A DNA stretch of 64,000 nucleotides from Desulfovibrio sp. (GTDB lineage Bacteria; Desulfobacterota; Desulfovibrionia; Desulfovibrionales; Desulfovibrionaceae): NCBI GenBank assembly GCA_031260725.1, contig JAISKZ010000010.1, positions 7,012 to 71,011 of the forward strand, given 5' to 3'. Both the position numbers and the translations under genes were made by a program. Positions 11,801-33,180 of the stretch are shown one piece after another (within the stretch, counting starts at the first letter, position 1; each line of letters begins with the position of its first letter). Below the pieces are notes generated by a model. It saw nothing but the letters and a program-made list of their open reading frames with translations. It did not search any database and was not told where the DNA came from.

Positions 11801-13021
11801 GTTCAACTTGTATCTGCCGACAGGAGAGAGATCGTAGTAGTTTGAATTTCTAAAGAGGTTGTCAAAATAATTTGCCGCAATTTCCGCCGTTGGCGGCGAA
11901 GAAGGCCGCAGACGCCGGTATATCTCTTCTTGAGCTTTCTGCTGGTCGGGAATGCGATCCAGAACCAGTGTGTCGCGAATAGAGGAAGACGCGCCGGCGC
12001 CCTTGGTGTGCAGCACAGCTATGCGTTGAATATTCGCCTCGCGCAGACGCTCCAGAAGACCGGGCGTTATTTCGTCAGCCGCTTCCGCCAGCACTTCGCC
12101 TGATTTGCCGTCGGTTGCGTCTTCAGCAAGGAACATGCTGTCCAGCAGGTCAGGCCGCACTTCAATTGCCTGAATTCCCGCTTCACAGATCACGCGCCAG
12201 CTTCGTTTTGTGATAGGCTTGCCGGCCTTAACGATTATTGTTCCATCAGGGGCAACAATGTCGGCATAAGCGTTATCTTTGCGGTAAAGATTTTTTTTGA
12301 CTTCCCAAAACAATCGGTTGTCCTGCAAGAGGTAATGTTCACGATTGTAAAAATAATCAAGTATTTGTGCCTTGCTCATCCCCATGGCTTTAAAGAGAAT
12401 GGTGGCGGGCATTTTTCTGCGCCGGTCAATACGGACATACAGTATGTCTTTGTGATCAAAGTCAAAATCAAGCCATGAGCCGCGCATAGGCATCACGCGG
12501 CAGGAATAGAGCACCTTGCGGCTTGTATGTGTTTTGCCGCCGTCGTGTTCAAAAATGATGCCGGGAGAACGTTGAAGCTGGTTGACTATCACGCGTTCTG
12601 TCCCGTTAATAATAAATGTGCCCTTTTCCGTCATCAAGGGCAGCGTGCCGAAATAGATGTCCTGTTCCTTGATGTCACGTATGCTCTTGTTGCCGGAGGC
12701 TGCATCAGCGACATAGACGATAAGGCGCATTTTTATGCGCACGGGGGCTTCGTAGGTCAGCCCTTTGGCAATACATTCAGCCTGATCATACTTGGGTTCG
12801 CTTATCTCATAACTGACGAATTCCAGACTAGCGGTTTTATTAAAATCTTCAATGGGGAAGACAGAATGGAAAACGCCTTCCAGACCTTCGTCGCGATTTC
12901 GTTCCGCATCAGAAACACCTTCCTGGAGAAATTTTCGATAGGAATCTATTTGCAGATTCAGTAAATGAGGAATAGGAAGAGAAACTTTGATTTTGCCAAA
13001 CTGTTTGGTAAGCTGATCCAT
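8885..13021 (-). CDS. rpoB: DNA-directed RNA polymerase subunit beta
   Basis: Rif region [45 protein letters not shown] 13021 chosen because GAGGTG lies just upstream. Confidence 0.99.
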
Positions 13022-13194
13022 GAGCACCTCAAATCAGGTAACGGTTGCGCCCCGGCAGCGCGGGAGAAAGCGCCGTTTGACGCCGACGGAAAATTTTAAA
13101 AAAGTCTGCGGGAACAATCAGCAATTAAAGCAGGGGAGCAAGAAAGCGCGATTCCCCAAGAAACGAATTTCCATAGACATACATTGAACCTATT

Positions 13195-13223
13195 ATAATA
13201 AACGAAATATTTATTTTTTGCAA
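13195..13223 (-). promoter_or_regulatory. Candidate sigma70 promoter for rpoBC (TTGCAA-N17-TATTAT)
   Basis: Minus strand -35 TTGCAA at 13223-13218, 17-nt AT-rich spacer, -10 TATTAT at 13200-13195. Lies downstream of the rplL terminator. Confidence 0.55.
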
Positions 13224-13238
13224 GGGCTTTCGTGTTGA

Positions 13239-13319
13239 GAGAGATTCACGTTCGCAATGATTTGACACTTGTAATTAGTTGTTTTTACTTGATAAAAATA
13301 TCACAAAGGTGAAACTCTC
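13239..13319. mobile_element. MITE-like element, copy A (81 bp)
   Basis: TIRs GAGAGATTCAC / GTGAAACTCTC (10/11 complementary). Perfect 8-bp direct repeat CGTGTTGA on both sides (13231-13238, 13320-13327). Homologous to 32500-32589. Confidence 0.8.
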
Positions 13320-13356
13320 CGTGTTGAAGTTTTTTGGCTGGCCGCTGCAGCGGCAG

Positions 13357-13396
13357 AAAAGTAAAAGCATGGCGAAACATTACGGTTTCGCCATGC
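13357..13396 (-). terminator. Intrinsic terminator downstream of rplL
   Basis: 12-bp perfect stem GCATGGCGAAAC / GTTTCGCCATGC (13367-13378, 13385-13396) followed on the minus strand by TTTTACTTTT. Confidence 0.8.
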
Positions 13397-13445
13397 ACAA
13401 TGTGTGTAACGCCTGGCGTCGGGCCCGTGAGAGATGAAGACGGAT

Positions 13446-13832
13446 TTACTTAACTTCGACGGTCGCGCCTGCGTCGGCAAGCTGTTTTCTCGCTTCTTCA
13501 GCTTCTTCCTTTGAGACCGCTTCTTTAATAGTTGAAGGAGCGCCGTCAACTTTTTCCTTTGCCTCCTTGAGGCCAAGGCTGGTCAAAGCGCGTACCGCTT
13601 TAATCACGTTAATTTTGTTGGCGCCGGTTTCTTTGAGGATCACATCGAATTCAGTTTTTTCTTCCTCTGCGACCGCGGCGTCAGCGCCGGCGGCGGGCGC
13701 CATTACCATTGCCGCGGCGGGCGCTACGGCAGATACGCCAAATTTTTCTTCCAACTCCTTGATGAACTCTGAAAGTTCGAGCACAGTCATATCAGAAATA
13801 AAGGCGACGACTTCTTCCTTGGTCACGGACAT
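13446..13832 (-). CDS. rplL: 50S ribosomal protein L7/L12
   Basis: [27 protein letters not shown] motifs. Confidence 0.99.
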
Positions 13833-31053: not shown

Positions 31054-32349
31054 CTATTTGCCCATAGCGTTCATAAAGTCTTTATTGGATTTTGTGCCTC
31101 GCATTTTGTCCAGAAAAAACTCCATGCTGTCAATGGATGACATGGGGGCCAGAATTTTGCGCAAAATCCAGACACGATTGAGCACATCCTCCGGCAGGAG
31201 CAGGTCTTCTTTGCGTGTGCCGGTGCGATTGATGTCAATGGAGGGGAACACACGTTTTTCAGAAAGATGACGATCCAGATAGATTTCCATATTGCCGGTA
31301 CCTTTGAATTCCTCAAAAATCACTTCGTCCATACGCGAACCGGTATCAATCAGCGCTGTCGCTATAATTGTCAGACTCCCGCCCTCTTCAATATTACGCG
31401 CCGCGCCGAAAAACCGTTTGGGTCGTTGCAGGGCATTTGTATCCAGACCGCCTGAGAGGACACGGCCAGACGAAGGTGTTACCGCGTTATAGGCGCGGCC
31501 GAGGCGGGTAATGGAGTCAAGCAGAATAACCACATCGCGCTTGCGCTCCACAAGGCGTTTTGCTTTTTCCAGCACCATTTCACAAACCTGCACGTGTCGC
31601 TGTGGTGGTTCGTCAAAAGTGGAGCTGATGACTTCCGCCTTTTTAACCGTACGCTCCATATCCGTGACTTCTTCAGGGCGCTCGTCAATAAGCAGTACAA
31701 TGAGGTAGACGTCAGGATTATTAGCGTTAATTGCGTTAGCAAGCGACTGGAGCAGAATGGTTTTGCCGGTTCGCGGCGGTGCCACAATCAGTCCGCGCTG
31801 ACCACAGCCGACGGGCGCCATGATGTCAATAACGCGGTTGGAGAGATTTTTATCGCCGTTTTCCATAATGAGCTGCTGGTCAGGATATATAGGCGTAAGA
31901 TTGTCAAAAAGGACAAGATTTTTTGCGTGTTCCGGCGGTTCAAAGCCGATTTCCGTGACTTTGAGCAGAGCAAAGTAGCGTTCACCTTCTTTGGGGGGGC
32001 GTATCTGGCCAGAAACAATGTCGCCTTTGCGCAAGGAAAAACGGCGTATCTGTGAAGGAGAAACATAAATATCGTCAGGCCCAGGCATATAGCTGCACAA
32101 CGGCGAACGCAGAAAACCGAAACCGTCGGGAAGAATTTCCAGAACGCCATCGCCGTAAATAGCGCCGTTTTGCGAAGCGCAGGTCGAGAGTAGGGCAAAA
32201 ATCAATTCCTGCTTACGCATGGAACTGGCGTTTTCAATCTCAAACTGTTCAGCGAGCTCCATCAGCTCTTGCATGCTGCGTGTTTTGAGATCTGTGAGAC
32301 TCATGACGCTGTCTGTCAAAATGGCTGGAGATGCTTTCTTTTTCCACAT
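31054..32349 (-). CDS. rho: Transcription termination factor Rho
   Basis: [25 protein letters not shown]; start set at ATG 32349 (uncertain). Confidence 0.99.
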
Positions 32350-32499
32350 AACTATCCAATTTTTAAATAATACGAAATAAACCGTCAGCAGAGCCACCAG
32401 GCACAGGGGGTATTGAGATAGAATAGTAAAGGAACAAAAATGGCGTGTGCAGAAGCGATTACCGTATCTTTTTCCTTATGGCAAGAAAAATCTGTGCAG

Positions 32500-32589
32500 A
32501 AGAGATTCACTTTTTCAATGAGTTGATGCCGGTAATCCATTGTTCTTGTTTAGCCAACACATCAAAATCATCACAAAGGTGAAACGCTC
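32500..32589. mobile_element. MITE-like element, copy B (90 bp)
   Basis: Ends AAGAGATTCAC / GTGAAACGCTC. Perfect 8-bp direct repeat CTGTGCAG on both sides (32492-32499, 32590-32597). Homologous to 13239-13319. Confidence 0.8.
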
Positions 32590-32631
32590 CTGTGCAGAAC
32601 TGCTAATACAGAATAAAAGAATGGCATTTTG

Positions 32632-33180
32632 TCAGACAGACTGATCGGCAGCGCTGTCACCGTCTGTCAGCGGCCATGCTTTTTGACGACAGAATTGGAC
32701 GTAAATTTCAAAGAGTTCTGATCGTAGTGCATCTTCAGTGGTATTGAGCACTTCAGCCAGTTCACCTGTAACGAGACTCATGGCCTGTTCTTGCAGTCGG
32801 CGTTCACCGAAGGAGAGTTCTTTCGTTTTTCCAATCAGCAGCAGTTCTCTCAGAACCTCGGTAACCACCAGAAGATCAGGGCTTTTCAGACGATCGGAAT
32901 ATTCACGGAACCGACGGTTCCAATTCTGTCCCGTATACACAATTTTATCCGTATCATTGCGCAGACTGTCAAGCATGCCGATCGCTCTTTGAGATGGCAC
33001 CAGAGGGCGCAGGCCGACTTTGAGCGCATTGTCCACAGGCACCATCAGGGTAATGTTGTTCGCACGGATGCGGACTATGTAAAATGAACACGGAACGCCA
33101 TTGATATGCTGGCTGTCGATGCGTTCTATTTTACCCACGCCCTGTGCTGGATAAACTACAAGTTCGTTCGGTGTGAACAT
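32632..33180 (-). CDS. CarD/CdnL family transcription factor
   Basis: MFTPNELVVYPAQGVGKIE, NWNRRFRE, LSFGERRL. Confidence 0.92.
   Translation of the reverse strand: MFTPNELVVYPAQGVGKIERIDSQHINGVPCSFYIVRIRANNITLMVPVDNALKVGLRPLVPSQRAIGMLDSLRNDTDKIVYTGQNWNRRFREYSDRLKSPDLLVVTEVLRELLLIGKTKELSFGERRLQEQAMSLVTGELAEVLNTTEDALRSELFEIYVQFCRQKAWPLTDGDSAADQSV

Follow-up and report, generated by a model that had tools for sequence, protein, structure and literature searches.

Two related elements upstream of rho and rpoB

In the window, by which we mean the entire 64,000-nucleotide stretch of DNA analyzed here, rho lies downstream of carD and carD downstream of pth, and all genes around the two elements described below are on the minus strand. 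The carD product is 182 residues long according to public records; the open reading frame itself reaches 33249. The carD–rho spacer contains a 90-bp element (copy B) that begins with AAGAGATTCAC, ends with GTGAAACGCTC and is bracketed by two occurrences of the 8-mer CTGTGCAG (Table 1). This two-ended pattern was found once in the window, with 0 occurrences expected from shuffled sequences. A homologous 81-bp element (copy A), with the ends GAGAGATTCAC and GTGAAACTCTC, is placed between the rplL terminator hairpin and the promoter-like site of rpoB (the identities of both genes were confirmed) and is flanked on both sides by CGTGTTGA. The chance probability of a perfect 8/8 flanking duplication is ~1.5e-5 for each. 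A preliminary description of this DNA had reported a 90-bp element with a perfect 8-bp duplication at 32492–32597, had named the neighboring genes carD, rho and rpoB, and had taken A and B for independent insertions. The element and its duplication were confirmed at this position, the gene names agree with Pfam and NCBIfam matches, and the two copies indeed differ both in their duplications and in the subfamily to which they belong (see below).

Table 1. Features of the carD–rho and rplL–rpoB regions (positions in the window)
Feature	Position	Strand	Evidence or remark
rho, downstream of copy B	31054..32304	-	NCBIfam Rho equivalog, 3e-207
Segment of 147 bp missing in 'Ca. D. trichonymphae'	32428..32574		Lost between two CCTTT repeats; joint in X3 and X5; alignment of L018-L022
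−35-like TTGCCA near copy B	32479..32484	-	Starts 16 nt outside the left end and points to rho; conserved host block
Copy B, left target-site duplication CTGTGCAG	32492..32499	+	Unmutated in the ortholog of strain L024
MITE copy B, 90 bp, non-coding	32500..32589	+	nhmmer family profile, E=7e-23
Copy B, left terminal inverted repeat AAGAGATTCAC	32500..32510	+	Consensus RAGAGATTCAC (7-copy alignment); pairs with the right repeat
Copy B, right terminal inverted repeat GTGAAACGCTC	32579..32589	+	Conserved subterminal block AAAATCATCACAAAG just before it
Copy B, right target-site duplication CTGTGCAG	32590..32597	+	Part of the D. trichonymphae remnant, together with a 15-nt piece of the element end
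carD, upstream of copy B	32632..33180	-	Pfam CarD_C and CarD_TRCF_RID; cluster P0001
Promoter-like site TTGCAA-17-TATTAT upstream of rpoB	13195..13223	-	−35 begins 16 nt beyond the left end of copy A
Copy A, left target-site duplication CGTGTTGA	13231..13238	+	Unmutated in D. trichonymphae L032
MITE copy A, 81 bp	13239..13319	+	Homologous to copy B; between rplL and rpoB
Copy A, right target-site duplication CGTGTTGA	13320..13327	+	Sequence
rplL terminator/attenuator hairpin, followed by TTTTACTTTT	13367..13396	-	Hairpin conserved in outgroups

The open reading frames that overlap copy B are 51–70 codons long, and a 70-residue gene called over its ortholog in strain L024 gave no Pfam match. 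Neither copy region matched any Rfam family; at E≤1, only chance-level matches to eukaryotic families were returned. Alignment of A with B over their full lengths yielded 64 matches, 17 mismatches and 9 gap columns, of which 44 matches, 15 mismatches and 9 gaps fall in the interior. The earlier estimate that the interiors differ at about a third of positions holds if indels are counted, but not otherwise. The terminal inverted repeat is 11 bp long (RAGAGATTCAC / GTGAAACKCTC, the partner of RAGAGATTCAC being GAGMGTTTCAC), pairs at 10/11 positions in A and 8/11 in B, and continues imperfectly to ~18 pairs in five independent copies. Across the family alignment, the ends and the right subterminal block AAAAT-ATCACAAAGGTGAAAC-CTC are conserved; the interior is not.

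Several shorter motifs were recorded near the two copies. TGTGCAGAAG(C/A)GATT occurs twice, 47 nt apart: the occurrence at 32493–32507 consists of the left duplication and the start of copy B, and that at 32446–32460 falls within the conserved promoter-like block preceding rho; the outgroup sequence at this place is TGTGTTGAAGCGACT. The conserved sequence to the left of copy B was also considered as the remnant of an older element; nhmmer detected no homology, and the idea was rejected. The sequence TATTTCGT(T)TATTAT is found on the minus strand upstream of rpoB (13195–13211) and of rho (32367–32381) alike, and variants are kept in the outgroup spacers (TTCGATTATCC, TTTGATTATTT and CTCGTTTATCA); it may represent a common −10-region architecture of the two promoters.

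A dispersed family in Desulfovibrio from termite guts

The sequencing runs that contain the window sequence are termite-gut metagenomes and related samples. CarD of the window clusters at ≥90% identity with CarD of 'Candidatus Desulfovibrio trichonymphae' (BAV91815.1), and rho is 97% identical at the nucleotide level to the genome of that organism. We therefore regard the window as derived from a close relative of this protist-associated bacterium. Exact-protein look-ups with Rho, RplL and RplK of the window gave matches in the window's own lineage only.

Genomes were scanned with the two-ended pattern, using one genome per species and requiring both short ends within 75 bp. Three copies were found in the metagenome-assembled genome (MAG) Desulfovibrio sp. 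Po218_bin116: L001, upstream of der, has the perfect 8/8 duplication GATATTTT; L004, upstream of guaB, has a 6/8 duplication (GCGCGTGG / GCGTGTAG); and L003, upstream of pyrR, one of 4/8. The preference for core transcription genes suggested by the positions of A and B does not extend to these copies. The pattern was too strict for the copies of D. trichonymphae, whose ends have mutated. Two further loci of the genome scan (L002 and L005) were chance matches, as were 12 loci from the scan of metagenome contigs, none of which had the family ends.

Additional copies came from assemblies of related organisms. In run X18, which holds Po218_bin116, ~10–12 contigs match the L004 copy. The D. trichonymphae single-cell assembly X3 gave at least six B-type and four A-type further matches, and the assemblies of this lineage contain ~10 or more copies or fragments overall. 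Other contigs match the interior of B (e.g. 32501–32589, with 7 differences) or A (13239–13307, with 7–8 differences). By sequence, A and B are thus assigned to two subfamilies. Each has closer relatives at other places in related genomes, which explains the diverged interiors of A and B without recourse to selection. A search of 446 kb of related DNA with the family profile returned solely these copies and their orthologs. Contigs often stop inside element copies, which indicates that the repeat breaks assemblies. In runs X3–X6 (contigs of 3.9–10 kb), two inverted copies enclose a segment of ~3.7 kb in assemblies of the D. trichonymphae lineage.

The 446 kb of related DNA yielded no autonomous IS or transposase gene with matching ends. 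A blastn search of plasmids likewise gave no autonomous IS (best E ~8), nor did the genome and metagenome pattern scans, whose 75-bp end limit could not detect a full-length IS.

Insertion into pre-existing spacers

Empty counterparts of the occupied sites were found at three loci. The outgroup Desulfovibrio MAG L026 has a carD–rho spacer without the element and retains the block left of copy B (TTTTTCTTGCCA...AAAAGAT.CGGTA.TCGCTTC..CACACGCC). In the outgroups L033 and L034, the rplL–rpoB spacers are ~100 bp shorter and are without copy A, while the rplL terminator and a CTTGC(A/C)AA-17-TAT..T promoter are kept. Finally, the region upstream of guaB is without the element in two relatives of Po218_bin116 (L027–L030), in which the TTGACAT promoter is kept. 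The flanks of the empty sites are too diverged for the exact single-copy target to be read. Together with the duplications, the empty sites at three loci establish insertion.

Taken together, the copies are short (80–92 bp) and non-coding, have 11-bp terminal inverted repeats, are flanked by duplications of constant length and differing sequence (CTGTGCAG for B, CGTGTTGA for A and GATATTTT for L001, each 8/8), are dispersed in multiple copies over at least two species and are absent from orthologous sites at carD–rho, rplL–rpoB and guaB. Judged at the sequence level, all hallmarks of a bacterial miniature inverted-repeat transposable element (MITE) are present except an identified parent IS. 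The MITE model of the preliminary description was borne out by the duplications of the three Po218_bin116 copies and by the empty sites. The duplications CGTGTTGA, CTGTGCAG and GCGTGTAG (the last at 1683–1690 of L004) have CGTGT/CTGTG-like starts in common; this may reflect a weak target preference, 4–5 sites being too few to judge.

We considered the alternative that the feature is not mobile at all and instead constitutes a conserved cis-regulatory palindrome, i.e. a two-half-site operator of rpoB and rho, the 8-mers being due to chance or forming part of the site. Conservation of the two ends across species and a third occurrence of TGTGCAGAAG at 32446 would fit such an operator. However, an operator does not account for three different perfect 8/8 flanking repeats, for empty orthologous sites at three loci or for a multi-copy family that adjoins unrelated genes, and the supposed half-sites decay in orthologs. 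We consider an operator extremely improbable. Copy B is very probably a non-autonomous MITE of an undescribed family of termite-gut Desulfovibrio symbionts and is now a neutral passenger. A DDE-type transposase encoded elsewhere would have bound the ends, cut the target with an 8-bp stagger and inserted the element.

Age and decay of the insertions

Orthologs of copy B were found in L024 and in runs X7, X9 and X10, and orthologs of copy A in X3, X5, X9 and L032. Both insertions are thus common to strains that are ~3–7% divergent, which speaks against the earlier proposal that they were fairly recent. Orthologous copies with intact duplications are those of L024 (B) and L032 (A); at ~3–7% divergence, intact duplications (two 8-mers, 16 nt) are expected under neutrality. 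By these comparisons, both insertions of the window are dated before the split from D. trichonymphae. Copy B would have entered the carD–rho spacer in an ancestor common with 'Ca. D. trichonymphae' and would then have drifted neutrally; several strains retain it, and D. trichonymphae has lost most of it.

The earlier suggestion that the ends or flanks are under selection was not supported by comparison of the orthologs. Copy A of the window and its D. trichonymphae ortholog are unlike at 11/81 positions, as against 24/353 in the flanking spacer, and both terminal repeats are changed in D. trichonymphae (GAGAGATTCAT and GGCGAAAC). Between the window and L024, copy B differs at 4/90 positions versus 19/263 in the flanks.

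In every 'Ca. D. trichonymphae' assembly examined (L018–L022, comprising the AP017368 genome, draft and single-cell assemblies), the 147-bp segment listed in Table 1 is missing. The loss takes most of copy B together with the conserved TTGCCA block, and the remnant, CTGCACAG joined to GAGCGTTTCACCTTT, consists of a single duplication and a 15-nt piece of the element end. Because the outgroup still has the lost block, this is a deletion in the endosymbiont, of the microhomology type, with its breakpoints in the CCTTT repeats. Part of the deleted region (32428–32499; around 10590 in L018–L022) includes the promoter-like block preceding rho, which apart from this loss is conserved across species. 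Since this block is lost, rho of D. trichonymphae would have to be transcribed from another start or by read-through from carD. One assembly (L019; GCA_025997355.1, BNUM01000005.1) has an extra SurA_N fragment and a 270-residue fragment of the Rho C-terminus at 12263–13694, between rho and a surA-like gene; these fragments are absent from the other assemblies and reflect either a local duplication or an assembly artifact.

Folding of the element

The preliminary description had raised the possibility of a domesticated hairpin. According to this proposal, a minus-strand stem–loop terminates, attenuates or stabilizes transcripts into rho and rpoBC. The minus-strand RNA of B had a predicted folding energy of -28.5 kcal/mol (z = -2.2) and that of A -20.8 kcal/mol (z = -3.1), both copies have the same orientation and separate a core transcription gene from the gene that precedes it, and a T-run (ATTTTTC) follows the hairpin of B, all of which would suit a functional hairpin. 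However, the consensus fold consists of the terminal inverted repeat alone, and compensatory changes were found in 0/18 predicted pairs. The plus strand of B folds better still (z = -3.4), so the folding is not strand-specific. The T-run is pre-existing flank, present in the empty site of L026, and a scan of 32250–32700 revealed no terminator-like site at B. No intrinsic terminator was assigned to copy A: the rplL terminator (13367–13396) lies outside it, and a weak match at 13302–13323 needs bases of the flank. Nor did the search for a structured regulatory RNA give a positive result, with no compensatory pairs and no Rfam family.

The distribution of copies points in the same direction. A and B lie upstream of promoter-like hexamers, so promoter-proximal transcripts would exclude both. 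At least at guaB and pyrR, the Po218_bin116 copies are oriented oppositely relative to the downstream gene, and the family adjoins unrelated genes. Moreover, the element diverges at the rate of its flanks or faster, D. trichonymphae has lost most of B, and both repeats of A are mutated there. A domesticated hairpin is rejected because the fold is confined to the terminal repeats, compensation and a terminator are lacking, the T-run belongs to the flank, and other copies are inverted and lie next to unrelated genes; we rate it as very improbable. A read-through transcript from carD would fold copy B into a long imperfect hairpin, but nothing indicates that this is used. Thus, copy B is an old, unconstrained insertion and not a regulatory hairpin.

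Spacing between the element and −35 hexamers

Both flanks were read for five independent copies; for the others, we used 30-nt flank consensi, some of them merged over several copies. In 4/5 fully sequenced independent copies, the layout outward from one end is the 8-nt duplication, 7–8 nt and a −35-like hexamer, such that TTG[AC][AC]A begins 16–17 nt beyond the end of the element. Compared with the background frequency of the motif, which was defined after seeing the data, finding it in 4/5 copies corresponds to a binomial P of ~8e-9. The hexamer is TTGCAA for copy A, with TATTAT at 17 nt, and TTGCCA for copy B. It is TTGACA for L004 (TTGACA-16-TATACT, before guaB) and for L003, where TAAGTT follows ~18 nt on, before pyrR. 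At the expected offset, L001 has only TTGTCC.

The 30-nt flanks from related assemblies contain TTGACA or TTGACT at an equal offset in at least three further loci and TTTACG in one copy. No hexamer was seen at either end of the X1/X2 copy or in the merged flank consensus of ~5 further Po218 copies; the latter result means that the spacing rule is not universal. Wherever a hexamer was found next to a copy in the lineage of the window, it was the left end that faced it; in Po218_bin116, the right end does so. This asymmetry between the lineages is provisional because right flanks were rarely recovered in the window lineage. The earlier remark on a shared orientation thus applies within the window lineage, where the left end faces the −35 hexamer, but not at guaB and pyrR, where the opposite end does so.

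At copy B, the TTGCCA block is conserved in L026, which is without the element. The −10 hexamer paired with it (TAATCG) is poor, and no sigma-70-like site near copy B passed the scan; we infer that the block would have promoter function. The duplication of copy B would have landed 7 nt upstream of this pre-existing hexamer. Indeed, hexamers were already present at the empty sites of all three compared loci (A, B and L004). They are therefore host promoter elements there and not parts of the transposon, and their prior presence suggests promoter-targeted insertion, although the sample is small.

Survival of random insertions would hardly account for the fixed distance of 16–17 nt. It could result from selection if the element had been exapted as an upstream promoter module, activating transcription through its end or an internal IHF-like site. 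Apart from the spacing, which is fixed in most of the copies examined, this explanation draws on the left subterminal region of A/B-type copies, where the sequence CAATGA(T/G)TTGA(C/T)(A/G) (e.g. 13255–13268 and 32516–32529) resembles the IHF consensus (WATCAANNNNTTR); copy A of D. trichonymphae (CAATGATTTGATA) matches it fully. Yet outgroups that have no element keep the promoters at three loci. In D. trichonymphae, copy A has mutations in the repeat next to the promoter and has diverged more than the flanking sequence, and copy B was deleted together with the adjacent hexamer. In addition, selection for activation would be expected to yield helical-phase alternatives ~10 bp apart, and none was seen. 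Given that the outgroup promoters stand without the element and that the ends next to the promoters decay, targeting is a likelier cause of the spacing than selection for an upstream module, and we regard such a module as improbable.

Targeting itself is advanced with reserve. On the sequences at hand, we give slightly less than an even chance to promoter-targeted transposition, in which the family would prefer insertion sites at a set distance upstream of sigma-70-type −35 hexamers. Put more specifically, and a shade more tentatively still, the MITE family may home to promoters such that the duplication comes to lie 7–8 nt upstream of the −35 hexamer (~-52 to -45 from the transcription start), with the end that faces the promoter being specific to the subfamily. 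Homing could proceed through a DNA-binding domain that reads the −35 hexamer or through recognition of promoter-bound RNA polymerase.

Significance and comparison with known systems

As a MITE, the element is ordinary; what it contributes is an undescribed mobile family in the reduced genomes of Desulfovibrio associated with protists. The genome papers on the D. trichonymphae lineage do not mention it and report, of repeats, MITEs and transposons, solely transposase pseudogenes. The copies provide dated markers of insertion and deletion during genome reduction, as exemplified by the loss upstream of rho in D. trichonymphae. The feature that deserves dedicated follow-up is the promoter-proximal spacing. 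A limited search of the literature revealed no description of a Desulfovibrio MITE or of a −35-spaced insertion. If the fixed spacing is true, it would point to a transposase that recognizes promoters and to a generic mode of promoter-targeted transposition in bacteria. It would also help to explain how small elements spare compact genomes and might offer a targeting principle.

Among known elements, MITEAba12 of Acinetobacter is 113 bp long, has 16-bp repeats and generates 9-bp duplications, which 40% of its copies retain unmutated; it carries outward promoters, and its target bias is for A+T only (PMC6382973). The present family is similar in being short (about 80–115 bp for the two together), non-coding, A+T-rich and multi-copy, in having imperfect terminal inverted repeats and fixed-length duplications that are intact in some copies only, and in its intergenic location near promoters. 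It differs in its ends (RAGAGATTCAC versus GGCTTTGTTGCACAAA) and in the length of the duplication (8 bp versus 9). Furthermore, the promoter hexamers here are host sequences at a constant distance beyond the element, and the parent IS was not found.

Correia elements (CREE/NEMIS) of Neisseria are 100–155 bp long, with 26-bp repeats, a TA duplication, their own promoter boxes and RNase III sites; they are small intergenic inverted-repeat elements near promoters that form transcript hairpins and contain an IHF-type site. Our element resembles them as a small intergenic inverted-repeat element near promoters, with a predicted transcript hairpin and an IHF-like sequence, but is without the size, repeats, TA duplication, promoter boxes and RNase III sites of Correia elements. 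REP sequences have no target-site duplications and are linked to RAYT transposases; ERIC/IRU sequences are ~127 bp long and have a TA target. Like the REP/BIME and ERIC/IRU sequences of proteobacteria, the present family is a dispersed imperfect intergenic palindrome that can fold in mRNA; unlike REP and ERIC, it has variable 8-bp duplications and empty sites. Judged against the general descriptions of these families, it is not a Correia, ERIC or REP element.

Tn7, through TnsD at attTn7, and CRISPR-associated transposons duplicate 5 bp of the target and are directed to one site or a programmed site by dedicated target-selector proteins or guide RNAs. In the present case, the signal would be a generic promoter hexamer, and no genes for a selector protein or guide RNA were seen here. 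The likeness to these transposons is one of mechanism only, and membership is not claimed: insertion would occur at a set distance from a signal, with a particular end of the element facing it.
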